The position numbers and the translations under genes are program-made. A model generated the notes under the pieces. The model searched no databases. It worked only from the letters and a program-made list of their open reading frames with translations, and was not told the DNA's origin. From a virus: 64,000 nt of DNA. The DNA is taken from positions 1 through 64,000 of IMG/VR virus record IMGVR_UViG_3300025636_000001. One strand, 5' to 3'. How positions within the stretch are numbered: position 1 is the stretch's first letter; each line of letters opens with the position of its first letter. This document shows positions 31,857 through 44,247 of the stretch, in pieces.

Positions 31857-32168
31857 TTAAGACAAATTTTTAAGACGTTCATTTTCTTTTTCAAGAAAAT
31901 CAACCTTGACTCTTAAAGCATGAACTTCAGCTGTAAGATTAAGAACTTGTTTTCTCATAAGATCTTTTTCTTCTGAAGATTGAGCAAGTAAAGACTCCAT
32001 ATTTCTTACTCTTGCTTTTAAATCATCTCTGTATTGCATACCATCACTATTTACTTGATCAAATTTTTCTTTTTCTTTTTGTGTTTTATATCTTGTAGAT
32101 ATAAACTGCCATATGCCTGTAGATCCAGCAACTGTGATCAAAGTTAATATTATTTGAGTGATATCCAT
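31857..32168 (-). CDS. 1-TM coiled-coil protein (holin/antiholin-like)
   Basis: N-terminal hydrophobic helix ITVAGSTGIWQF followed by a heptad coiled coil. Confidence 0.6.
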   Translation of the reverse strand: MDITQIILTLITVAGSTGIWQFISTRYKTQKEKEKFDQVNSDGMQYRDDLKARVRNMESLLAQSSEEKDLMRKQVLNLTAEVHALRVKVDFLEKENERLKNLS

Positions 32169-32621: not shown

Positions 32622-33602
32622 ATGAGCAAAAATATTTTTATGCCTAGGGAAAACATAATGCCCTATGAATACCCGTCCTTACTTGATTATAAGGATGCTA
32701 TAAGACACTCTTATTGGATAGATACAGAGTACAACTTTACAACTGATATTGATGACTTTAAAACTAAAGTTTCAGATGAAGAACGTGAAGTTATTAAAAA
32801 AACAATGCTTGCTATTGCTCAAATTGAAGTTAATGTCAAAACCTTTTGGGCTGATCTTTACAAGAGAATGCCTATCACAGAAATTGGAGATGTTGGAATG
32901 ACATTTGCAGAATCTGAAGTAAGACACAAAGATGCATACGCAAGACTTCTTAGAATTCTAGGATTAGAAGAAGAATTTAAAACGGTTGTTGAGATACCTG
33001 CTATTGCTGGAAGAATTAAGTACTTAAAAAAGTACTTAGATGGTTCACGTAGTAGAGATGATAAGATGTACACTAAATCAGTACTTCTATTTTCTTTGTT
33101 TATTGAACATGTAAGTTTGTTTAGTCAATTCTTAATTATGATGTCCTTCAACAAAGAAAGAAATTTATTTAAAGGTATTTCCAACGTAGTTGAAGCAACA
33201 TCTAAAGAAGAAGATATTCACGGTAACTTTGGTGCAGAACTTATCAATATCATTAAAGAAGAAAACCCAGATTGGTTTGATGAAGAATTTAATGATTTAA
33301 TTTATTCAGCATGTAAAAAAGCATATGATGCTGAGTGTAGCATATTAGATTGGATCTTTGAAAAAGGAGAACTTGAGTTTTTACCAAAGCAGACTATATA
33401 TCACTTTATAAAAAACAGGTTCAATAACTCTTTAGCTAAAATTGGAATGAATCCTATATTTGAAGTTGACACCAATTTATTAGAGTCAACAAAATGGTTT
33501 GAGGTAGAAATTACAGCAACCAAAGAAGGAGACTTCTTTTACAAAAAACAAATTGATTACAACAAAAAGTCCAAGGCAATAACCGAGGATGATTTATTTT
33601 AA
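32622..33602 (+). CDS. nrdB: Ribonucleotide reductase class I beta subunit
   Basis: ESEVRHKDAY and EEDIH metal ligands, IEHVSLFSQF, C-terminal DFF...DY.....EDDLF. Confidence 0.93.
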   Translation: MSKNIFMPRENIMPYEYPSLLDYKDAIRHSYWIDTEYNFTTDIDDFKTKVSDEEREVIKKTMLAIAQIEVNVKTFWADLYKRMPITEIGDVGMTFAESEVRHKDAYARLLRILGLEEEFKTVVEIPAIAGRIKYLKKYLDGSRSRDDKMYTKSVLLFSLFIEHVSLFSQFLIMMSFNKERNLFKGISNVVEATSKEEDIHGNFGAELINIIKEENPDWFDEEFNDLIYSACKKAYDAECSILDWIFEKGELEFLPKQTIYHFIKNRFNNSLAKIGMNPIFEVDTNLLESTKWFEVEITATKEGDFFYKKQIDYNKKSKAITEDDLF

Positions 33603-33616
33603 TAAACCAACAAATT

Positions 33617-35242
33617 ATGGAATACAAAAAATATTATTGGCTTAATGATGATAGCCGTACTTTTTTATCAAGGGGTTATATTTCAGAAACTCCAGAACAA
33701 AGAATCAAAGATATTTCTATTAAAGCAGAAAAATATTTGAATATAAAAGGCTTTGCAGAAAAGTTTGAAAACTATATGGCTAAAGGATATTACTCTTTGT
33801 CAACACCAGTTTGGATTAACTTTGGTAAAGCAAAAGGTTTACCTATCAGTTGTTATGGATCTAACGTTGATGACAACTTAGATAGTATCTTAAATGCTGG
33901 CCGTGAAATTGGAATGATGTCTAAATACGGAGGAGGTACTTCTGTATACTTAGGTAACATTAGACCTAGAGGTACAAAGATAACAACAGGTGGAACTGCA
34001 GATGGTCCTGTGCATTACGCTAGAATCTATGATACTGTAGTAGATGTATGTAAACAATCTGAGGCTCGTAGAGGTGCATGTGCTGCTTGGTTACCTGTAG
34101 AGCATCCTGATGTTTTAGAATTTTTAGAAATAGGTGGAGAAGGTAATCCTATTCAAAATCTACAATTTGGTATTACAGTAACAGATAAGTGGATTGAAGA
34201 AATGAAAGAAGGGGATTCTGATAAACGTAAGATTTGGGCTAAGATTATTCAAAAAAGAAATGAGTTTGGATTTCCATATATTATGTTTAAAGATAATTCT
34301 AATAATAATTCACCATATAAAGAATTAGGTTTAGATATTACAGCATCTAATTTATGTTCTGAGATTCAATTACCAACTGATTCATTCAATTCATTTGTAT
34401 GTTGTTTAGGTTCAATCAACTTATTGCATTGGGATGAAATTGTTAAAACAGATGCTATTGAAACTTACACTTTATTCTTAAATGCTGTTATAGATGAATT
34501 TATTACAAAGTCTAAAACAATGCCAGGTATGAGCAGAGCATACAACTTTGCAAAAGATCATAGAGCTGTTGGTTTAGGTGTAATGGGATGGCACTCTTAT
34601 CTACAGTCTAAGCTGATTGAGTTTGAATCAATGGAAGCTAAATTCTTAAACACAAGTATATTTAAAACAATTAAAGATAGATCTGAGGTAGCGTCCAAAG
34701 AACTATGTGAAGTTTATGGTGTAGAGTCAATTAGAGAAGGTTATGCAAATACTACATTAGTAGCTATTGCACCCACTAAATCAAGTTCATTTATTCATGG
34801 TCAAGTTTCTATGGGTATTGAACCAATTAAATCTAATTACTTTATCAAGGATCTTGCTAAGTCAAAGACTATATATAAGAATTCATTCTTAGAGTGTGAA
34901 TTAGCTAAGTATGATATGAATACTCCTCAAGTATGGGAAGACATCTTGAAAAAAGATGGAAGTGTGCAACACTTAGACTTTCCAACAAAAGCTGTATTTA
35001 AATCATTCATTGAGATTAGCCCTAAAGAAATAATTATTCAAGCGGGTGCTAGACAAAAGTTTATTGATCAAGCACAGTCATTAAACTTAATGATTCATCC
35101 AACAGTGCCAGCAAAAGATATTAATCAATTGTATTTATTTGCACATGAATCAGGAGTTAAGACTTTATACTATCAATTTAGTATGAGTTCTGCTCAAGCA
35201 TTTTCAAGAAATATTCTTGAATGTGCTAGCTGTGAAGGATAA
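33617..35242 (+). CDS. nrdA: Ribonucleotide reductase class I alpha subunit (no ATP cone)
   Basis: PISC, RRGA, ASNLCSEI, IAPTKSSS, KTLYY, C-terminal CASCEG. Confidence 0.95.
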   Translation: MEYKKYYWLNDDSRTFLSRGYISETPEQRIKDISIKAEKYLNIKGFAEKFENYMAKGYYSLSTPVWINFGKAKGLPISCYGSNVDDNLDSILNAGREIGMMSKYGGGTSVYLGNIRPRGTKITTGGTADGPVHYARIYDTVVDVCKQSEARRGACAAWLPVEHPDVLEFLEIGGEGNPIQNLQFGITVTDKWIEEMKEGDSDKRKIWAKIIQKRNEFGFPYIMFKDNSNNNSPYKELGLDITASNLCSEIQLPTDSFNSFVCCLGSINLLHWDEIVKTDAIETYTLFLNAVIDEFITKSKTMPGMSRAYNFAKDHRAVGLGVMGWHSYLQSKLIEFESMEAKFLNTSIFKTIKDRSEVASKELCEVYGVESIREGYANTTLVAIAPTKSSSFIHGQVSMGIEPIKSNYFIKDLAKSKTIYKNSFLECELAKYDMNTPQVWEDILKKDGSVQHLDFPTKAVFKSFIEISPKEIIIQAGARQKFIDQAQSLNLMIHPTVPAKDINQLYLFAHESGVKTLYYQFSMSSAQAFSRNILECASCEG

Positions 35243-35282: not shown

Positions 35283-35329
35283 AAACAAACAAAGACCGGT
35301 CATATAATGTGGCTGGTCTTTCTTGTTTT
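35283..35329 (+). terminator. Rho-independent terminator after nrdA
   Basis: AAAGACCGGTCA-tataatg-TGGCTGGTCTTT followed by CTTGTTTT. Confidence 0.75.
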
Positions 35330-35342
35330 ACATTCTTAAAAG

Positions 35343-35352
35343 TTGTATATTA
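35343..35352 (+). promoter_or_regulatory. TTGTATATTA candidate promoter of the signalling operon
   Basis: Lies between the nrdA terminator and the ATG at 35389; same motif at 3038 and 32238. Confidence 0.4.
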
Positions 35353-35388
35353 TTATATAAATACTTATGTATATTTTAATATAATATT

Positions 35389-35589
35389 ATGAAAGAATTA
35401 CTTAATAGCATTACTGATACCCGTATGGTTTATCTTTTAATGTCAATTGTTTTATTGACAGGTTATTTTTTTCAATCATGGAGTGTAGTAATATTTGTAA
35501 CATTTATGTTAAACGTTGGTGTATGGACGGGGTTTTGTCCTAGCAAATGGTTCTTTGCTAAATGTGGTTTTAGAAAAGCTGATTTATAA
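35389..35589 (+). CDS. Small 2-TM membrane protein, YgaP/DUF2892-like
   Basis: Two hydrophobic helices followed by GVWTGFCP; TAATG-coupled to the kinase. Confidence 0.6.
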   Translation: MKELLNSITDTRMVYLLMSIVLLTGYFFQSWSVVIFVTFMLNVGVWTGFCPSKWFFAKCGFRKADL

Positions 35590-36869
35590 TGAAAGCACTT
35601 TCAGGTTTATCAATTAACTCTAAAATATCTTTAGGAGTTGCTTTAGTTATCATGATGACATTCTTCATGGTGCAGACCTGTATTGTTTTTGGTTTATGTG
35701 AGCCTTCATTAGAATTAGCTAAATTTGGCTGGGGTTGTGTAGTGTTTTTCATGCCCCCTTTTTTTAAAGTTGTGCAAGAATTTGTCAGCAACATTAAAAG
35801 AAAAGAAGAAAATATAGATGTTTATTTAAATGCTATTGATAAATCTAATCTAGTTGTTATACTGAACATTGATGGTTATGTTTTAGAAGCAAATCAAAAC
35901 TTTTGCTCAGTAATGGGGTATCAAGAAAAAGATTTAAAAAATAAGCTTCACAAAAATTTAGTACCTAAAGAATATAATGAAAGTAAAGAATACTTTAACT
36001 TTTGGAAAACATTAAAAGAAGGTAAAAGTATAACTGGTGAATTTGAACGTATAGGGAAAAATGGAAAAAGTGTTTGGTTATTTGGTAATTATACCCCTAT
36101 TCAAAATAAAGCAGGTAAATATACTAGGGTCTTAAAAATAGCAACTGATATAACAACTCAACATGAGGCTGAGATAATAGTAAATCAAAAGAATACTTAT
36201 TTAGAATATGCAGCAAAAATCATACGTCATGATATGCACAGTGGTATCAATACTTACTTACCAAGAGGAATTAAGTCCCTTAACCGCAGACTTAGTCAAG
36301 AAAATATTAAAGATCTAAAAATAAGTGCTCCTTTAAAATTAATAAGTGATGGTTTAGATCATACACAAAAAGTTTATAAGGGTGTATACGAGTTTACAAA
36401 TCTTGTTAAAGAGAATGCACAGCTTACCACTGAACAAAATGATGTAACTGAAATACTAAAAGATTATCTAAGACTAACAGCTTACAAAAACAGCGTTATC
36501 TTATCTGATGACTTACCTAAAACATTGGAAATAAATAGAGCTTTATTTTGCACAGCTGTAGATAATTTTATTAGAAATGGATTAAAGTATAATGATAGTG
36601 GTACAAAATGGGTTAAGATTTATCTTGAATCAAAAATTATAAATAGCAAAACAAAAAACTTTATTGTTATTGAAGATAATGGTAGAGGTATTACAGGTGA
36701 AGAATTTACAAAATTATCAAAACCATACATACGTAAAGAAGATCAAAGTGAAACTGGAACTGGATTAGGATTAAATATTTCTATTGCAATTTTAGAAGAG
36801 CATGGGTTTAAAGTTCACGCAGAAAAAAAACAAAAAGATAACGGTACAAAAATATATATAAGGTTATGA
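35589..36869 (+). CDS. Membrane-anchored PAS-domain sensor histidine kinase
   Basis: 2 TM; PAS/PAC (ANQNFC...FWKTLKEG..TGEFERIGKNGKSVW....TP.....IATDIT); H-box RHDMHS; N-box NFIRNGLKY; G1 IEDNGRGI; G2 GTGLGL. Confidence 0.92.
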   Translation: MKALSGLSINSKISLGVALVIMMTFFMVQTCIVFGLCEPSLELAKFGWGCVVFFMPPFFKVVQEFVSNIKRKEENIDVYLNAIDKSNLVVILNIDGYVLEANQNFCSVMGYQEKDLKNKLHKNLVPKEYNESKEYFNFWKTLKEGKSITGEFERIGKNGKSVWLFGNYTPIQNKAGKYTRVLKIATDITTQHEAEIIVNQKNTYLEYAAKIIRHDMHSGINTYLPRGIKSLNRRLSQENIKDLKISAPLKLISDGLDHTQKVYKGVYEFTNLVKENAQLTTEQNDVTEILKDYLRLTAYKNSVILSDDLPKTLEINRALFCTAVDNFIRNGLKYNDSGTKWVKIYLESKIINSKTKNFIVIEDNGRGITGEEFTKLSKPYIRKEDQSETGTGLGLNISIAILEEHGFKVHAEKKQKDNGTKIYIRL

Positions 36870-37300
36870 TAAATACATTGATGTTGATTGATGATGAGAA
36901 TCTCTTTCATTTAGTGTTTGAAGATGCATGTTCAATGCTAGATATAGCATTATCAATACAATCACTAGACAGTAGTGATGAAGCAGATAAAATGTTTAAA
37001 AGTTGGTTTCCAGATAATGATGAGGAAAAACCTGAGTGTGTCTTTGTGGATCTAAATATCATTGGTTCTAGCTTTGATGGCATAGAAATGATTAGGAAAA
37101 TAAATCAGGATTATGGTAATGGTTGTGTTATTGGAATTATTTCTAGTAGTTCAGATCAAGAAGAAATTGAGAAAGCCAAAGCAGTAGGTGCTCAGTTTTG
37201 GATTATTAAGTCTGATGACATTGAACCAAGACTGGAAGAATTTCATAAAGATTATGAAGGGTATGTTAGTAAAACAAATCCTTTCAAAGTATACAGATGA
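36866..37300 (+). CDS. Stand-alone response regulator receiver protein
   Basis: LIDDE acidic pocket, PECVFVDLNI phospho-acceptor Asp, DGIEM, ISSS, GAQFWIIK conserved Lys; no output domain. Confidence 0.9.
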   Translation: MINTLMLIDDENLFHLVFEDACSMLDIALSIQSLDSSDEADKMFKSWFPDNDEEKPECVFVDLNIIGSSFDGIEMIRKINQDYGNGCVIGIISSSSDQEEIEKAKAVGAQFWIIKSDDIEPRLEEFHKDYEGYVSKTNPFKVYR

Positions 37301-37869
37301 TAAGCTCTAAACATACAATCAAAGAAGCTTTAGAAATAGCTAAAAATAAAAAAGTTTACATAGAAGGAAACTTTACAAAGCTATTAAATGAAACTTCTGA
37401 TAAAGAAGTTAAAAGCTACATTGATTTATGTAAAGAAAAAGATTTACAGAACAGAAAGAAAAGATTACAAATAACTAAACAAGTTCAAAAGCAAAATAAA
37501 GATCTTGAGTCAGCAGCTAAAGAAAATGAAAAACTTGTTGTTGATTTGAAAAAGGCTTTAAAAGAAACTGAATCAGCAAAAAAAACTGCTGAGGATAGTA
37601 TGGATAAAGCTTTACAGGATCTAGAGGTTGTTCAAAAGAAAAGTCAATTTGAACTTATTGGTACTATTGTAAGAGTTGCTTTATGGGTTATAGGTGGTGT
37701 TGGTATACTAACAACCTTGATGTATGCAGTAGCTTTAATGAATGATGTAGATACTCAGATAATCGGTAGTACCTGGTCTAATATGTTTGGTATACTCCTA
37801 ACTAATGCTTTCTCTATTGTAGGGACCATTATGGGTGTAAAGTATGCCACAGATAATACAAAGGAATAA
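37297..37869 (+). CDS. Coiled-coil protein with two C-terminal TM helices
   Basis: Heptad-rich middle; VALWVIGGVGILTTLMYAVAL and MFGILLTNAFSIVGTIMGV helices; ATGA-coupled to the response regulator. Confidence 0.7.
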   Translation: MISSKHTIKEALEIAKNKKVYIEGNFTKLLNETSDKEVKSYIDLCKEKDLQNRKKRLQITKQVQKQNKDLESAAKENEKLVVDLKKALKETESAKKTAEDSMDKALQDLEVVQKKSQFELIGTIVRVALWVIGGVGILTTLMYAVALMNDVDTQIIGSTWSNMFGILLTNAFSIVGTIMGVKYATDNTKE

Positions 37870-38453
37870 TGAAAAAGTATTTTAAGAATTTACAGACACT
37901 GCTTATAGTAGTTCTGGTTGTAGTTATATTACTAATGAGAAGTTGTTCTGGTAAGTCAGAACCTGTTGAACCTGTTATTATAACAAACGTTGAAGTCAAG
38001 TATGACACCATCACTGAATATGTACCTGAGTACATCCCTAAGCTTATCACAAAAGTGGAGTATGTACATGACACAGTAGTTAGAACACAACCTATTGATA
38101 CAGTAGCAATACTTAAAGATTATTTTGCTACATATGTATATGAAGATCGTCAAAAGTTAGATAGTCTAAACATAACTATCAAAGACTCGGTAACTCAAAA
38201 CAAAATTATATCAAGGTCTATAGCTTATGATCTTATATATCCCACTACTACTATTACAAAAGAAATCTACTTAAACAATAGAGAGTTTTATTATGGTCTA
38301 AACCTTAACGGTAAATCAGATCAACTAAACTACTTAGGTGGAAGTCTTTTATATAGAACTAAAAGCAAGCAAATATATAGTATTGGTTTAGGTGTTAATC
38401 AAAACATGGAACCTGTTATATCAGCCGGATTATACTGGAAAATAGGAAAATAA
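37869..38453 (+). CDS. Membrane-anchored/lipoprotein-like protein, putative spanin
   Basis: Basic N-terminus, hydrophobic helix ending LLMRSC, V.YDTI/HDTVV repeats, amphipathic beta-strand C-terminus ending GLYWKIGK. Confidence 0.55.
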   Translation: MKKYFKNLQTLLIVVLVVVILLMRSCSGKSEPVEPVIITNVEVKYDTITEYVPEYIPKLITKVEYVHDTVVRTQPIDTVAILKDYFATYVYEDRQKLDSLNITIKDSVTQNKIISRSIAYDLIYPTTTITKEIYLNNREFYYGLNLNGKSDQLNYLGGSLLYRTKSKQIYSIGLGVNQNMEPVISAGLYWKIGK

Positions 38454-38482
38454 AAAAGGAAGACTTTTACATCTCCCTCTTT
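38452..38482. terminator. Weak hairpin between convergent genes
   Basis: AAAAAGGAAGA-cttttaca-TCTCCCTCTT imperfect stem. Confidence 0.35.
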
Positions 38483-38484
38483 AG

Positions 38485-41400
38485 TTATTTTATAAAGAAA
38501 TTATTTAGCTGAATGTAATCTTGCCACTTCTTAATTGTATAGAGAATTGGTACTATATCCATAAATTCTTTACCTACTTTTAATTTACCGGCTCTTCTAC
38601 CTCTCTGATAGTATACGTCTTTATTATAATACCAGTCATCTTCATTACCTGTGACCATGTATTTAATACCGCTTGTTCCATAATCCCAAGATGCATCTAT
38701 AAGCCCTCCCATTTCACCAAGAGTTCTTGTTATAGCAAAGGGGCTATCAAAGAATTCAACAGTTTGTGTTAAACCACTAGAACTAGGTACAAATATTAAT
38801 AATTCTTTTTTAGTTCTATCTGCTTGATAGCGTGCAATATTTTTAAGCTTCTTTACAAAATCACTATCATCATCATCACTTAATAGTATTGAATCAAATA
38901 GATTAATTATTAAAAATGTTAAACCAATTGTAGCTAACTCACCATTAAATCTATGAACATTTAATATTTTGTTTTCTATTCTTTGTCTTTCAGATTCACT
39001 TATTTCTTTATCATTATTTAACCTTGCTATACTGTCTATGTAACCTTGAACAGTCATACCTTTATTAAGATCCCCTTTAAGTTTACCTAGACCAGCTTCA
39101 CTCATGTACTTTACAAATGACCACCAAGATCTAATCCTACCTTCCATCCAACCTAAGTTTTCATCAAAATATTCCCTTTGATATCTCGCTCTTATTGCTG
39201 GAGCAACCCACTTATGAAATTGAAATAATAATTTACCAACATAAAGTTGTTGTAAAACAACCTTATCTTCAGCAGCATAGTTACCATGAATTTGTTTATT
39301 TACTTCACGTATTTTCATACGCAGATCATATCTAAACTTATCATTGTATTCACCAACCTCATCATAAAGCATATTACCTTGCTCATCTTTTTTAATGTTG
39401 TTACCTTTTAGAGCTTGCTTAAATGTTGGAATTTCTTTTTTAGGTTTTATTATTGTTGTAAATCCTTCTTTTAATTCTAATTTTTGATCTCCACTAAATT
39501 CAAATGCATCATATAAACTTAAGATTTCACCAGTGTCTTTGTTTAATATATAGGTGTCCATTACTATTGCCATACCTATTTTAGTTTGAACATTATATTC
39601 AGCTGCATCCTGTAACAAATATCCAAACTCTTTAAATCGGTCATAATAACTTTTACCTGTTCTATCAGTAACACCACCAGATTCCCTTAAATCTCCTTTA
39701 TTATCCATCATTCTAAAGAGATCAACAAAACCTTCAAACTTACTTGTTGGTTCATATGGATCATACCTACCGCTACTTCTAACAGCAGTAACATCATGGG
39801 CTGTTCTTCTAATAAAATCTGGAATAGCTCTGGTATTAAATTCTTTACTTGCTCTTATATAAGCATCTCTTGCAAAGAATCTTTGACCCATTACTTCAAT
39901 ACCATTATTAACCCTTGCAATAACGTAGTTATTAAAGTTACCAAAAACGTTAAATGCAACATAACTTAAAGAAGTCCATCCTAAAACGCCATCAATGATT
40001 TTTTCAAATTGATTTTTAGTCATATCATCTGAATCATAGAATACCATTTCCATGAATTTTTTTGCAGCCTCTTTAGTATTACGTGCTTTTTGATCAGCAG
40101 GTGTATCATCAACACTACGACCACCTGTTAATTTTTTAGCTTTTCTTGCAACTTTCTTAACTGTTGTAACTCTTTTACTATATTCTCTTTTATTAATTAC
40201 TTCTTGAAAAGCCAACATTGTTTCTTCAACACCACTCATGACTTCATAGTTTTCAGCCATTGCAGCGTATTTCATTATAGCTTCCGTCAAATCATAACTT
40301 AACTCTTCTGCTGCAGGTTTAGACCTTACGGCAACCAGTTCAGATTCCAGTTTTTGTAATTTTTTTAAATAGCTTTGAGAAGTTGCAGCTGTTGAATTAC
40401 CATATTGATTTTTAAGCTCAGCTATTTTATTTTCAATAGCTTCAACATCTTCAGCTTGTCTAAGATTTCCAGTATACATTATTGGTATACCATCAACCAT
40501 TTCACCCTTTTCATTTACATTAACCTTTGTAAGTCTTGTTGTTGTAGAAAAGAATTCTTTAGTATTAGTTTTAGTTGCTGCCCAAAGAGCTTTAGCACCT
40601 GTAGGTTTATTTTTAGCATAACTTGAGAAATTACCACGGACTCTTGGTGATTTACCATACATGTAACTACCAACACCATCAGGTAACTTATCATTAAGAT
40701 CTTTCCACAATGCAGTATAAGCTATATAATAAGCTTTTCTAGCTGACGCTAATGCATCAGTTTGTGGAGCATCCATTATAGCTCTATACTTATCACTAGT
40801 CATAATCTGACCTGACTTAGATGTTTCTAAAATTTCTACATATTCTTTTTTAGGAAAAACACCTTCTTTCTCTACAACCTTTCCTGTAAATACACCATCT
40901 TTCATTATAGCTTGGTTGTACTTAACTACATTATAATATTTATTATAGTACATCTCTTGTTCTTTCCCTTTAGAACCATTGTATACCCAGCGTCCATTAT
41001 CTAGTTGTATTTCATTTTTATTTCTTGCATTTATAAACTCAGAATTATATGTATGATATTCACCAGTTTCAGTTGTACCATCATCATTTACAACTTCAGC
41101 TTGCATAAACTTTCTATACTCTTGTTTCTTTCTATATAACTCTTGATTAAAAGCAATATCTTCAGGTTTAGCTTTTGATATATCACCAATAGGTCTATAC
41201 ATAATCATCTCACCGTTAGAGTCACGTAGTGATTTATATAAAGCATTAAACTTATCATAGTATTGAGGACCTATTTTTTTAACTAGCTCCCCTGTATGTA
41301 CACCATTTTCATCAAGTTCAATCATGAACTCATAAATTTCTTTAGCATTTTTACCTGGAGATAATTTAGCTAACCTTGATGCATACAAAACAAAAGACTT

Positions 41401-44247
41401 TCTTTCTTCAATTCTATCTAGAACTTCTTGTCTTTTAGCATGCCACATCTTTTTCATTAATGCAATTAAAGTGTCTTCTGCTGTATTTGTATCTCTCGTG
41501 TAATAATCCGTAAGGCTCATATCTTCAATTACTGAATGAAATAAATCTTCAAATGGATCAACAACTTCACCTGTTATTGGATCCACATAAGGAGCAAAGT
41601 CTTTACTTGAATTTTCTCTAACAATGGCCTTAACATGTGTAAACAAAGCTTCATCAATAACACTTTGTTTTTCTGAAGTAGATTCACCTAATCTATTTAA
41701 TGTATTTTGTATCTGAAGTATGATATCCTTTTGTGTTGTATTTAAACCCGCAATGGAAGGAAGCTTATATAAACCTTCAAAGGTTTTAATAAAGTTTTCA
41801 TAGTTTCTTGCTCTTGTTAAATACAAAGGATTAGAAGCATTATCTTTATTTAAAAGATATTTTTCATACTCCTCTAATTCTTTTTTAATATCAAGAAGTA
41901 ATTCTGTAAATACTCTAGGTGCTTCTCCTGTCTCTGTTAGTGCAATTGTTGTTAATGCAATGTTTGAACTTAATCTTTCAACAGCATCTTCTTTAGTTCT
42001 ATCCATATAAACAGCAGACTTTACTGTTTCTATAACATCACGTCTTGTTGTAAGACTTTTTCTGTATTCTTTAATAGCACCTATATACATGTTTTGTTCC
42101 AACCCACCAAACTCTGTTGGGCCAGCTAAATCCATGTTCTTTATATCACCAAGATCTTGACCATCAAATTTTTCAATAGCAGTATCTGTTTCATTTAGAA
42201 GCTTTTCTAATTCTGCTTTAGATTGTTTGTTTACTTTTTTAGGTACTAAGGCATTAACATAAGGCTCATTTTGATTTAGTGGATGAAATACAACATTCTC
42301 TATTTCAAAATTTCCATTAAACTTTTGATCTTTCCCTTTACCTGTTATATCCACCCATAAGTGATGAGTGCTTGCACCTTGTTCACTTGCATCAACTTCA
42401 TAACCCATATTTTCAAGCATCCTTCTATATAAGTTTACTTGAAGATTGTGTTTTTGTTTTGTTGATAGAGTCTTTACACCGTAAGCTTTTAGTAAAGAGT
42501 CATCTTTTAAATCCCACTTATTATTATACTTACCATCTTCACTTGTTGATAATCTATTCTTACTTGTCTTTAAATCTAAAATCTTCAGCTTTCCCTGGGG
42601 TGTTATTGCAAGTAAATCTATAGTTCCTGCAATATTAACACCGTCTGCATTTTCACCATGCACTACAACTTGAGGAACTAAAATATCTCCATCATTGGTT
42701 ATTGCTTTTATATAACCGTCCATTGAATAGTAAGCTCTTGTTAGCTGTTCATCTGTTAAGATTTGCATACCCGCTTCTTTCACATCAGCTAGGGATTTTC
42801 CTAATACTATAGCTTCTGCTATATTATCAAAGTCATTACCTACAGCTAAATTAAGTTCTACATCATCAAGATTTTCCATCTTACCACCTATAGCAGTTGT
42901 TGATGAAACATATTCAATTGATAAATCTTTTAGATTATAGTATGTATGATTCTTCTCATTTAGAATTACTATGTCATCATTGTTTCCAACATCTTTTTTA
43001 CCAGCACTAAATGTAGGAGTCTCTCCCTTTCTTTGTTGTGCAGCATGAAATAGTTTATCTAAAACAATTTTTTGAGCGTCATTAGCATTTCTTCTTATCT
43101 GATCAAGTGCTGTTTGTTTTTCTTCAGATAATGAATATCTAACTTTAGAATCTACTTTCTTCTCTAATATAAATTGCAATTCACTTGTATTCAAAAGTTT
43201 TGCAACATCAGATAAGTTTGATCCGGGTTTTATTTTATCTACTTTAAGTTTAGCAGTACCACCAGTGTATGCTTCATGAAGATTTTTAATTACACCTAAG
43301 AACCAATTTAGGAACTCATTGATTTTATCTTTAAAAGATTTAGTGGGTGTGTTCTCAAATTCATTTGAAAAATATCTTGTAAGAGCTTGTGTTACCAACT
43401 CTAGTTCTCTGTGTCTTTCACTAAACTTTCTATACTTGGTATTATAAGCTTCATCTATTTCCTGCTTTAATATAGGAAAGTTTGCAGCAGCTTCATCGTA
43501 AAGAGTTTTAAACAGCTCTGGGTTGTCTACATACACAGCATCAATAAAAGGGTGTAAGACCTCTTCTATAGCTATATCATGTGTCACTTTACCTTTAATT
43601 AAAACAGCAGTTTGATTTACATAAAAACTTCTTACCTGTGAAAAAGGTGTTTTGTTTTTTTGATATGCTGGTAATGTATCATACAAGTTCTCTGCTTCTT
43701 TAGCAGATAAGATCTTAATTGCTAAACCTGGGAACATTTTTTGTATGTGACTTAACACATCTACTGTATGTGTACCTGCAGCTCTTCTGCTTTTTGGTAA
43801 AACATCCACAGGCATTAAAGCATCTTCATTTATAGAGATCCTTCTTGACCTCCTTGTTATAGTATCATTTATAACATCTCTTGGTATTTTATTTTTATCT
43901 AAGTATCCAAGTAATCTATTATAATTAATCTTTAGACTTTTAGGGTTACCAACCATTTCACCATCTCTTGTGTTGTTGAGATAGTAACCACCATACTTTT
44001 CAGAATAATGTATAATTTTATTTCTAACAAGGTTGGCAATCAAAGCATCTGTAAAAGCCTTTGTCTTTAATGAAAAAGACATATTAAGTTCTTCTTGCAC
44101 TTGCTTTGCTTGCTCTACCGTAGGAAACTCTTCTGAGTTATTTAATGATTGCCATTTTTCAATTAAACTATCAACAACCATATTGTCTTTAAACTCCTCA
44201 CTTAAAGACTGATACTCAGGTAAATTTTTATTATAACACTTAGCCAT
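38485..44247 (-). CDS. Large virion cargo protein with a PD-(D/E)XK nuclease-like domain
   Basis: 1920 aa; IAGTIDLL...KILDLKTS...QVNLYRRML; degenerate zincin-like IEEVLHPF; adjacent to the vRNAP gene. Confidence 0.75.
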   Translation of the reverse strand: MAKCYNKNLPEYQSLSEEFKDNMVVDSLIEKWQSLNNSEEFPTVEQAKQVQEELNMSFSLKTKAFTDALIANLVRNKIIHYSEKYGGYYLNNTRDGEMVGNPKSLKINYNRLLGYLDKNKIPRDVINDTITRRSRRISINEDALMPVDVLPKSRRAAGTHTVDVLSHIQKMFPGLAIKILSAKEAENLYDTLPAYQKNKTPFSQVRSFYVNQTAVLIKGKVTHDIAIEEVLHPFIDAVYVDNPELFKTLYDEAAANFPILKQEIDEAYNTKYRKFSERHRELELVTQALTRYFSNEFENTPTKSFKDKINEFLNWFLGVIKNLHEAYTGGTAKLKVDKIKPGSNLSDVAKLLNTSELQFILEKKVDSKVRYSLSEEKQTALDQIRRNANDAQKIVLDKLFHAAQQRKGETPTFSAGKKDVGNNDDIVILNEKNHTYYNLKDLSIEYVSSTTAIGGKMENLDDVELNLAVGNDFDNIAEAIVLGKSLADVKEAGMQILTDEQLTRAYYSMDGYIKAITNDGDILVPQVVVHGENADGVNIAGTIDLLAITPQGKLKILDLKTSKNRLSTSEDGKYNNKWDLKDDSLLKAYGVKTLSTKQKHNLQVNLYRRMLENMGYEVDASEQGASTHHLWVDITGKGKDQKFNGNFEIENVVFHPLNQNEPYVNALVPKKVNKQSKAELEKLLNETDTAIEKFDGQDLGDIKNMDLAGPTEFGGLEQNMYIGAIKEYRKSLTTRRDVIETVKSAVYMDRTKEDAVERLSSNIALTTIALTETGEAPRVFTELLLDIKKELEEYEKYLLNKDNASNPLYLTRARNYENFIKTFEGLYKLPSIAGLNTTQKDIILQIQNTLNRLGESTSEKQSVIDEALFTHVKAIVRENSSKDFAPYVDPITGEVVDPFEDLFHSVIEDMSLTDYYTRDTNTAEDTLIALMKKMWHAKRQEVLDRIEERKSFVLYASRLAKLSPGKNAKEIYEFMIELDENGVHTGELVKKIGPQYYDKFNALYKSLRDSNGEMIMYRPIGDISKAKPEDIAFNQELYRKKQEYRKFMQAEVVNDDGTTETGEYHTYNSEFINARNKNEIQLDNGRWVYNGSKGKEQEMYYNKYYNVVKYNQAIMKDGVFTGKVVEKEGVFPKKEYVEILETSKSGQIMTSDKYRAIMDAPQTDALASARKAYYIAYTALWKDLNDKLPDGVGSYMYGKSPRVRGNFSSYAKNKPTGAKALWAATKTNTKEFFSTTTRLTKVNVNEKGEMVDGIPIMYTGNLRQAEDVEAIENKIAELKNQYGNSTAATSQSYLKKLQKLESELVAVRSKPAAEELSYDLTEAIMKYAAMAENYEVMSGVEETMLAFQEVINKREYSKRVTTVKKVARKAKKLTGGRSVDDTPADQKARNTKEAAKKFMEMVFYDSDDMTKNQFEKIIDGVLGWTSLSYVAFNVFGNFNNYVIARVNNGIEVMGQRFFARDAYIRASKEFNTRAIPDFIRRTAHDVTAVRSSGRYDPYEPTSKFEGFVDLFRMMDNKGDLRESGGVTDRTGKSYYDRFKEFGYLLQDAAEYNVQTKIGMAIVMDTYILNKDTGEILSLYDAFEFSGDQKLELKEGFTTIIKPKKEIPTFKQALKGNNIKKDEQGNMLYDEVGEYNDKFRYDLRMKIREVNKQIHGNYAAEDKVVLQQLYVGKLLFQFHKWVAPAIRARYQREYFDENLGWMEGRIRSWWSFVKYMSEAGLGKLKGDLNKGMTVQGYIDSIARLNNDKEISESERQRIENKILNVHRFNGELATIGLTFLIINLFDSILLSDDDDSDFVKKLKNIARYQADRTKKELLIFVPSSSGLTQTVEFFDSPFAITRTLGEMGGLIDASWDYGTSGIKYMVTGNEDDWYYNKDVYYQRGRRAGKLKVGKEFMDIVPILYTIKKWQDYIQLNNFFIK

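Follow-up and report, generated by a model that had tools for sequence, protein, structure and literature searches.

A phage-encoded kinase-regulator pair and a membrane hairpin protein as a candidate sensory input to lysis in aquatic phages

Lysis inhibition has been described for phage T4, where it involves holin T and antiholin RI (PMC11413866), and for phage ICP1, where it involves TeaA/ArrA (PMC7182436). In both, phage-encoded sensing times holin-dependent lysis, and the membrane-associated regulator is encoded with the lysis genes. In staphylococci, the kinase-regulator pair LytSR is reported to respond to membrane potential and to control the holin/antiholin-like membrane proteins CidA/LrgA (PMC5717393). 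Phages are also known to carry bacterial-type receptors through which a sensed signal could feed into phage decisions. They are exemplified by the agr genes of phage phiCDHM1, which encode the AgrC histidine kinase and reportedly no regulator (PMC6127314), and by VqmA of vibriophage VP882, a transcription factor of the one-component kind that controls the switch between lysis and lysogeny (PMC7790227). The passages on this subject in a survey of jumbo phages speak only of a divergent receiver domain that has no relation to kinases. Here, we analysed a 64,000-nucleotide stretch of viral DNA (the window), which is the first 64 kb of the 116,877-base IMG/VR virus record IMGVR_UViG_3300025636_000001 (completeness rating 100%). 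At positions 35,389 to 38,453 it carries a cassette encoding a small membrane protein (g1), a histidine kinase, a receiver-only response regulator, a coiled-coil membrane protein (g4) and a fifth protein (g5). The reading that we favour, with modest confidence and on the sequence evidence given below, is that the cassette encodes a phage-owned phosphorelay which would gate a lysis-cassette membrane effector and so time lysis.

The locus differs from each of the described systems. In T4 and ICP1, superinfection is sensed by a periplasmic antiholin domain that binds the holin, and no kinase, receiver or phosphorylation is known to take part, whereas in the window module sensing would be cytoplasmic or intramembrane and modular (PAS, GAF, phosphorelay). 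No sequence relation of g4 to the T4 and ICP1 regulators was found with Pfam and PHROG. The LytSR system is cellular and transcriptional, LytR inducing lrgAB, while the pair described here is phage-encoded, has a regulator that lacks a DNA-binding domain and presumably acts by protein contact. This regulator has no LytTR output domain, and no LrgA/CidA-type Pfam match was found for g4, g1 or g5, which sets the module apart from the LytSR/LrgAB type. Neither phiCDHM1 nor VP882 is known to have a complete kinase-regulator pair wired to a lysis-cassette membrane effector. Small accessory membrane proteins are found with intramembrane-sensing kinases of the LiaFSR type, and the window kinase resembles them in having g1 encoded just upstream. 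Single-domain regulators such as CheY, which acts on FliM, and DivK work by protein contact, and the window regulator is likewise receiver-only; homology to CheY, DivK and LiaFSR is confined to the receiver and kinase domains. The whole system thus combines known kinds, two-component signalling and regulated lysis, and was not found in print. No description of a phage kinase-regulator pair linked to lysis was found in the literature, in a search that had subscription journals and supplements outside its range.

A conserved kinase-regulator-g4 unit

The cassette consists of the following features (positions in the window; aa, amino acids; ORF, open reading frame; TM, transmembrane):

35389-35589, + strand: g1, 66-aa membrane protein (ORF)
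35589-36869, + strand: sensor histidine kinase, 426 aa (Pfam PAS_3 and HATPase_c), membrane anchor at residues ~15-62
35850-36164, + strand: PAS domain of the kinase, residues 88-192
36228-36230, + strand: H box of the kinase, H214
36549-36866, + strand: HATPase_c domain of the kinase, residues 321-426
36866-37300, + strand: receiver-only response regulator, 144 aa (Pfam Response_reg)
37049-37051, + strand: phospho-acceptor D62 of the regulator
37297-37869, + strand: g4, 190-aa output candidate with a coiled coil and two TM segments
37654-37731, + strand: TM1 of g4, residues 120-145 (hydropathy peak)
37783-37839, + strand: TM2 of g4, residues 163-181 (hydropathy peak)
37869-38453, + strand: g5, 194 aa, N-terminal TM helix and beta-rich body, translationally coupled here

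The five + strand ORFs with overlapping stops and starts, as described in a first-pass annotation of the window, were confirmed. The TAATG at 35587 was read directly, and the ATGA, ATGA and TAATG overlaps at the other three junctions follow from the ORF coordinates. The extent of the conserved unit is seen in related loci, of which 89 were labelled, corresponding to 67 distinct by DNA, the window included. The kinase is encoded directly upstream of the regulator in 63 of the 64 distinct loci having an upstream ORF, and g4 follows the regulator at a distance of at most three ORFs in all 61 loci where 1300 bases or more remain for it. In 43 loci g4 adjoins the regulator, and elsewhere an ORF of 109 or 163 aa is inserted. 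The g1 gene was found within 500 bases upstream of the kinase in most loci with room (51 of 59). A second, more divergent set of loci was reached via the N-terminal domain of g4 (N-domain). In this set the regulator lies directly upstream of g4 in 24 of 24 loci, with the kinase upstream in 23, the remaining locus being cut by the contig end. The conserved unit is kinase-regulator-g4, usually with g1 ahead. The gene order that the first-pass annotation had proposed to check in phages is therefore kept for these three genes, and its five-gene unit is reduced to three or four, the fifth being lineage-specific. We consider it likely that the kinase, the regulator and g4 form one functional signalling unit.

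The fifth gene, g5, had been called spanin-like. In the structural model (predicted local distance difference test, pLDDT, 66.7), an N-terminal TM helix at residues 8-26 is followed by beta strands; the body is modelled as beta, not as coiled coil, and no spanin partner gene is present. A fold search against 48,161 chains (VIA) returned beta-meander matches only, with a best Z of 4.8. The residue C26 is near-invariant and has an Arg at -2, which is atypical for a lipobox. The gene stands beside the cassette only in the window and in loci L029 and L045, that is, in 2 of the 66 other distinct loci, and it is common in the phage group (558 clusters). On these grounds the spanin-like label is unsupported; g5 is a lineage-specific neighbour that stands outside the conserved module.

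The kinase and receiver domains are of bacterial families, and the operon could in principle be a recent capture of a bacterial two-component system, or an assembly artefact, with no function in the phage. The distribution of the genes argues against it. The regulator is encoded on at least 546 IMG/VR contigs, and its family comprises 3789 clusters at 90% identity (E<=1e-3), the longest contigs being mostly of 100-120 kb; the kinase core comprises 5307 clusters at 90% identity. Among 185,579 bacterial and archaeal species genomes (one per species), four true relatives were found, all on contigs of metagenome-assembled genomes (MAGs) labelled Bdellovibrionota, Verrucomicrobia and Alphaproteobacteria, with a GC content of 39-48% and with the trio kept where the contig allows. 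Judged from their N-terminal sequences, the genes beside one of these copies are presumably T4-type topoisomerase subunits. The copies look like phage DNA binned into MAGs and not like a cellular operon, and the chromosomal Bacteroidota operon considered in the first-pass annotation did not appear among these genomes. The same annotation had named an assembly chimera as a risk. The gene order, however, recurs in L029 and L045, and an independent 1663-base contig from a DNA run of another study spans 35329-36991 with 5 differences. Parts of the cassette are also covered by RNA-library contigs from three studies, a weak support for the reading that we favour, as DNA was possibly present in the libraries and parts lacking cover carry no information. 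Since all catalytic residues are conserved as well, we regard capture or artefact as extremely improbable.

Among described phages the module left few traces. The regulator gave no tblastn match at E<=1e-3 in 50,697 GenBank phage records, the kinase gave partial PAS or ATPase matches only against GenBank phages, and the cassette DNA has no relative among them. Five complete or near-complete viral records with the module include two with a related portal (86% and 61% identity) and three (186, 322 and 169 kb) with no related portal; therefore, the module crosses phage lineages. The phages that carry it span a GC content of 30-48% and a size of 100-430 kb.

Kinase, regulator and the small membrane protein g1

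The kinase and the regulator are new members of known families. In the kinase, Pfam identified PAS_3 at residues 99-184 (E 6.4e-14) and HATPase_c at residues 321-426 (55.1 bits vs a cut-off of 26.4), while HisKA gave no match, the H box being divergent. In 11 relatives H214, within the string RHDMHSGINTY, N326/N330, D363-N364-G365-x-G367 and G392-L393-G394-L395 are invariant. A larger alignment of 57 sequences retains N326, N330, D363, N364, G365, G367 and G392-L395. The H-box string is present in 54 of the 57 C-terminal slices, and the remaining three slices begin past the H box, as their proteins have a C-terminal extension. The nearest solved chains to the kinase core (residues 36-225 of the core) are the sensor histidine kinases 2c2a/3dge (E 2e-10). 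The alignment to 2c2a covers DHp helix 2 and the CA domain, which the window kinase shares with these class-I HisKA kinases in spite of its divergent H box. An ungapped count back from this alignment places H214 at chain position 29, which we take to be the acceptor His of 2c2a. The PAS domain aligns end to end with the sensor protein 3ewk (E 2.4e-14) and with the aerotaxis receptor 8dik (E 1.2e-9); both 3ewk and 8dik/Aer are, we assume, FAD-binding redox sensors.

The hydrophobicity profile of the kinase shows a strong segment at residues 15-33 and a weaker second one near 46-62, with almost no outer loop. The first-pass description of a kinase with two TM segments, a PAS domain and intact H, N, G1 and G2 boxes therefore holds for the PAS domain and the boxes, the second TM segment being only a weaker hydrophobic stretch. 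The sensor part varies among relatives, and the regulator and the g4 hairpin remain constant. The commonest form (~299 aa) has the anchor alone, others have a PAS domain, a divergent PAS domain or another exported N-terminus, and long forms of 417-712 aa exist, some with GAF; about half of the relatives have no PAS domain. From its sequence, the protein is best described as a predicted membrane-anchored class-I histidine kinase with a swappable cytoplasmic sensor.

Three side observations concern the kinase. The kinases of L034, L040 and L043 (365-371 aa) have no PAS domain and extend ~80 residues beyond the ATPase domain, a stretch that Pfam does not match. In L015, L094, L206, L213 and L214, two different tandem kinases, one of them rich in PAS/GAF, precede a single regulator and g4, which suggests several inputs converging on one output. 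Cysteine-based sensing was considered as an idea only and was not adopted, because the kinase residues C31, C37 and C50 occur in only 45, 43 and 45 of the 57 aligned kinases, respectively, and the only invariant Cys is C50 of g1.

The small protein g1 has two adjoining hydrophobic segments and the invariant motif T-x-F-C-P-S-K-W; its invariant residues are R12, C50, P51, S52, K53 and G60. It had been labelled YgaP-like. The window copy gave no match to PF11127 (YgaP-like_TM) even at E 10, whereas 11 of 29 g1 relatives matched this family, with a best E of 1.9e-4. A bacterial cluster is the third Atlas match of g1 (score 0.89), and 10% of its members have PF11127. The label is thus weak and applies at a distance. 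We regard g1 as a likely accessory of the kinase membrane domain and a distant relative of the YgaP-like TM family, as far as its sequence indicates.

The regulator passed the Pfam Response_reg (PF00072) cut-off narrowly in the hmmscan of the protein (34.1 bits vs 30.2). A six-frame PF00072 search of the genome, which speaks against the receiver assignment, gave no match, so the Pfam match is marginal. All 120 listed regulator relatives, each at least 84% identical, carry the precomputed PF00072 assignment, and 39 sequences show no variation at D9, D10, D62, S93 and K115. Among solved natural receivers 3ilh comes nearest, with an E of only 9.5e-5. The protein is composed of the receiver and a conserved 29-residue C-terminal tail (residues 116-144), with no output domain, so that its earlier description as a 144-aa receiver-only regulator with all phospho-relay residues is borne out. 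We classify it, on sequence grounds, as a divergent receiver; the failed six-frame search shows this divergence, and genome-wide domain screens could miss the family. Between phages with NrdA proteins only 37-39% identical, the regulator is 71-92% identical.

The hairpin protein g4 and the exchange of its input domains

The AlphaFold2 (AF2) model of g4 (pLDDT 80.3) consists of two short N-terminal helices, a continuous helix at residues 36-148, a five-residue turn and TM2 at residues 154-188. The long helix runs from the coiled coil straight into TM1. Together with the hydropathy peaks at 120-145 and 163-181, this agrees with the original description of a 190-aa protein with a coiled coil and two TM segments. 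The N-domain (~1-70) carries the motif EG-x3-K ... R-x2-R-L-x-I/V-T-K-Q-V-Q-x-Q-N, and the coiled coil extends to ~118. The protein is charged before TM1 and after TM2, the loop between the TM segments is short and acidic, and the C-terminus is short and charged. The sequence and the positive-inside rule fit a topology with both termini inside. TM2 is almost invariant. A profile of 58 proteins found only 243 representatives among 1.84 billion proteins, and the Atlas clusters of g4 are all viral and have no Pfam family. Pfam matches of the 58 members are mainly coiled-coil noise. In a complex prediction, the regulator with residues 1-118 of g4 received a score of 0.12 (mark 0.32), which is evidence neither way on binding.

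In PADLOC, residues 33-180 of g4 gave a weak match to LeoBC, a dynamin-like defence protein model (E 1.6e-6, 25.6 bits). Membership of g4 in LeoBC was not accepted, as the match is weak, covers a coiled coil and a hydrophobic hairpin and may be compositional. It nevertheless draws attention to an alternative in which the trio is a superinfection-exclusion or abortive-infection module. Its sensor would detect a competing phage or envelope damage, the hairpin would depolarise or seal the membrane and thereby protect the resident infection, and lysis cassettes would be a site for accessory genes. A sensor feeding a membrane-hairpin effector is a typical architecture of many defence systems, and the sensors of the module are freely swapped, as in conflict systems (PAS present or absent, GAF, kinases of 417-712 aa). 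The absence of a related portal in three of the five complete or near-complete records also suggests mobility. The kinase, the regulator and g1, on the other hand, had no PADLOC match, and the module, with its hundreds of contigs, is found in many arrangements at one constant site, between endolysin, holin and nrdA, which has the look of a core lysis gene more than of an accessory one present here and there. We therefore consider an exclusion function unlikely.

Both ends of g4 occur in other combinations. The coiled coil and hairpin are also preceded by GAF (P0270), one PAS (P0293) or two PAS domains (P0291), and the N-domain with the coiled coil is also followed by HisKA and HATPase_c (P0366, P0385, P0389, P0379). 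These swapped architectures suggest that the hairpin is an output module driven via the coiled coil by cytoplasmic sensors, and that the N-domain behaves as an input module. The fusions of the N-domain to a kinase, which include P0365, have a soluble kinase core and lie on contigs of up to 100,868 bases. No locus of this type was found in a viral scan with P0366, and an alignment search returned ordinary g4 genes only.

The form with two PAS domains and the hairpin (PAS-PAS-hairpin) was found on at least 253 viral contigs. Its 80 loci encode 57 distinct proteins. For 46 of these an endolysin or holin gene is at most 4 ORFs away, in 25 cases directly adjacent, and none has a kinase or regulator in its locus (0 of 57). 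In some of these loci (L130-L132, L171) the protein follows nrdA directly and precedes p79, a small two-TM protein, and an endolysin; in the window, the cassette occupies this slot after nrdA. The form is also carried by a 123-kb relative whose portal is 61% identical. When the PAS domain of the window kinase is compared with the two PAS domains of the one-component protein, the identities are 39% and 35% (E 4e-23). Next to the GAF-hairpin form, p79 or a GH19 endolysin is encoded, and the same kind of GAF is also found in long kinases that precede the regulator and g4. The kinase-regulator-N-domain chain thus appears to be the two-component version of a one-component sensor-gated lysis protein.

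This distribution also indicates the probable target of the regulator. Because the N-domain tracks the presence of kinase and regulator (61/61 and 24/24) and its replacement by a sensor tracks their absence (0/57), we infer that the regulator would act on the g4 N-domain. A competing explanation is that its real target is a host protein, for example of motility, division or a host phosphorelay, with the regulator being phosphorylated by the phage or the host kinase and g4 serving only as a membrane scaffold or phosphate sink. An invariant host surface would fit the conservation of the regulator, whose mean column identity is 87% (39 sequences) vs 56% for g4, 59% for g1 and 51% for the kinase (11 sequences). 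This explanation is at odds with the loci in which PAS domains replace the N-domain, all 57 of which lack the regulator and kinase. The phages concerned also differ in GC content and size, and so probably in their hosts. We hold a host target to be rather unlikely.

Lysis neighbourhood, genome setting and proposed mechanism

In relatives of the window, the cassette is flanked by genes for Peptidase_M15_3 (1.4e-22), Amidase_2 with or without PG_binding_1, GH19 or a PHROG endolysin, and by a Phage_holin_4_1/phrog_199 holin. Examples of the gene order are nrdA-M15-holin-g1-kinase-regulator-p163-g4, g1-kinase-regulator-g4-p176-p79-M15-holin, p79-amidase-holin-g1-kinase-regulator-p109-g4 and kinase-regulator-g4-endolysin. 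A recognised lysis gene lies at most 7 ORFs away in 45 of 67 loci, with labels that rest on a small reference set. Lysis ORFs account for 66 of 336 ORFs at a distance of up to 3 ORFs from the cassette edge vs 3 of 369 at 6 or more, counts which come from related phages and are not independent events, so that a Fisher p-value for them cannot be taken at face value. The side and type of the endolysin vary between the arrangements, and so much diversity in gene order, enzyme and side speaks for something beyond a single accident of inheritance.

The setting of the cassette in the window is given by these features:

32622-33602, + strand: nrdB, upstream of nrdA
33617-35242, + strand: nrdA, upstream of the cassette
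35291-35321, + strand: terminator-like hairpin of 14 pairs followed by a T-run, between nrdA and g1
38453-38482, - strand: terminator-like hairpin belonging to the convergent 1920-aa gene, at the end of the cassette
38485-44247, - strand: giant ORF, 1920 aa
44255-58360, - strand: giant ORF, 4701 aa
31295-31537, - strand: homologue of p79, an 81-aa two-TM protein from an internal start of a 108-aa ORF (context only)
31857-32168, - strand: 103-aa protein with a PHROG 'hol-like' match
104592-105506 of the full record, - strand: endolysin, PG_binding/Amidase_2

The terminator that the first-pass annotation had placed between nrdA and the cassette was confirmed, nrdA ending upstream of the 14-pair hairpin and its T-run. 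A sigma-70 promoter scan was not above shuffles (14 found vs 20.6 expected), and the regions upstream of the cassette are mostly coding in the relatives. Many of them (L029, L045, L002, L074, L025, L066, L057, L020) have a small ORF directly 5' of g1 with a conserved ...EEFKSL.W..R.W.RLKVAFF... segment; in the window, the terminator and a non-coding spacer take the place of this ORF.

Several observations weigh against a role of the module in lysis, in addition to the relatedness of the sampled loci and the small reference set. No recognised lysis gene lies within 7 ORFs in 22 of the 67 loci, the window included. The only recognisable endolysin of the window's genome is ~67 kb from the cassette and has no membrane protein beside it, and no Phage_holin_4_1 gene was found in this genome. 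The window g4 matches no holin family (Pfam E<=1, PHROG E<=0.1), and weak Phage_holin_9 matches appear in 8 of 58 g4 members only (best E 0.0096). A Foldseek search of g4 against the PDB returned nothing at E<=0.001, the best row being an MscS channel at E 6.8. In many relatives a canonical holin is encoded next door, so g4 need not be a holin. The regulator, being far more conserved than the kinase and g4, could also contact a conserved host protein. Finally, a metagenome scan with the fusion protein P0385 found only unrelated kinases or N-domain pieces, which limits the case made from the swapped architectures.

The endolysin of the window's genome is 51% identical to the enzyme of L008, and its neighbours are small, soluble-looking ORFs. 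A position of g4 in the lysis cassette, next to the endolysin, is seen in many relatives and not in this genome. The homologue of p79, a protein that adjoins g4, endolysin and holin in some relatives, is located 4 kb upstream of the cassette on the other strand. It is 78% identical to the p79 of L007, has TM segments at 24-42 and 52-70, and gave no Pfam or PHROG match. An obligate partnership of p79 with the module was rejected, since p79 was found in only 11 of 64 two-component and 13 of 57 one-component loci, counts affected by the low sensitivity of blast for a short protein. The 103-aa protein matched phrog_2658 'hol-like' (4.7e-7) and, weakly, DUF2730. Both proteins belong to a cluster of small membrane proteins upstream of nrdB. 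Because none of the membrane proteins adjoins the genome's endolysin, this cluster is a candidate for the holin-type genes of the genome, and may contain them.

The association with lysis genes could also reflect shared late expression only. The hairpin and its sensors would then serve another membrane task, such as controlling membrane potential or transport while the phage replicates, or remodelling the envelope for assembly. The window cassette is co-oriented with nrdAB and not with a lysis enzyme, and g4 has a short, charged C-terminus, no holin-family signature and, for what a non-significant row is worth, MscS as its best structural match. Against such a task stand the enrichment beside endolysin or holin in several independent arrangements and in two architectures, and the terminator that insulates the cassette from nrdA. 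We judge it quite improbable.

The genome has a GC content of ~30%, and the stretch is present in sequencing runs of marine or seawater metagenomes, which belong to several studies. PHROG matches were obtained for the portal, the large terminase (TerL) and the major head protein. The portal matches 141 phage records, with the Leptolyngbya phage Lbo-JY46 as the best (33% identity); it is 27% identical to that of csAssE-Sib and 23-24% identical, over 94-97% of the length, to those of crAss-like phages (cr55_1 and others). Judged from these sequences, the genome is that of a distant crAss-like phage, so the crAss-like label is appropriate at long range only, with portal identities of 23-33% to named crAss-like or related phages. 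The 1920-aa protein encoded downstream of the cassette had no PHROG match at E<=1e-5. Bases 1-127 of the record are repeated exactly at 115551-115677, 1327 bases short of the end. The two copies do not form a clean terminal repeat; the recurrence may stem from how the record was cut or be an internal repeat.

The phage-owned phosphorelay that we favour would work as follows. The kinase, together with g1, would read the state of the infected cell, most likely its redox, energy or membrane state, and phosphorylate D62 of the regulator. As the regulator has no DNA-binding domain, it would act by protein contact, docking in its phosphorylated form on the N-domain of g4. The signal would pass down the coiled coil to the inner membrane, where the hairpin would change its state through oligomerisation or through contact with a holin, and hole formation, hence lysis, would be advanced or delayed. 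In sister phages the same hairpin would be driven directly by fused PAS/GAF domains. In this scheme g4 is a candidate holin, antiholin-like or holin-activating protein. A holin is no likelier than the other two, because many relatives already carry a canonical holin. The first-pass annotation had proposed a sensory phosphorelay that acts through the two-TM protein on lysis. Strict linkage, clustering with holin and endolysin genes and the sensor-fused hairpins speak for this proposal; the distant endolysin, the lack of Phage_holin_4_1 here and the position of the 'spanin-like' gene outside the unit do not. More tentatively, and with some reserve, we suggest that many aquatic phages, from ~100-kb crAss-like ones to records of >300 kb, possess an undescribed 'sensor-gated lysis' system. 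In such a system a virus-only hairpin may set the burst time, and interchangeable PAS/GAF or kinase-receiver input may reach it via the N-domain.

Lysis timing sets burst size and phage fitness, and to our knowledge almost no sensory inputs into it are known besides lysis inhibition of the T-even type. A complete phage-owned two-component system appears to supply such an input here, by protein contact and not by transcription. If this is true, it would be the first two-component system of a virus for which an output is defined and does not act through transcription. The four small genes offer a compact kinase-receiver-effector set for study and engineering, and g4 represents a new family of membrane hairpin proteins with sensor-fused cousins. 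The module is abundant, its two forms being encoded on no fewer than 546 and 253 IMG/VR contigs, respectively, with thousands of protein clusters, and is found across unrelated phage lineages. If the reading holds, lysis timing in the sea would depend on the host's redox or energy state, and the finding would bear on how viral lysis responds to host physiology in marine and fresh waters.

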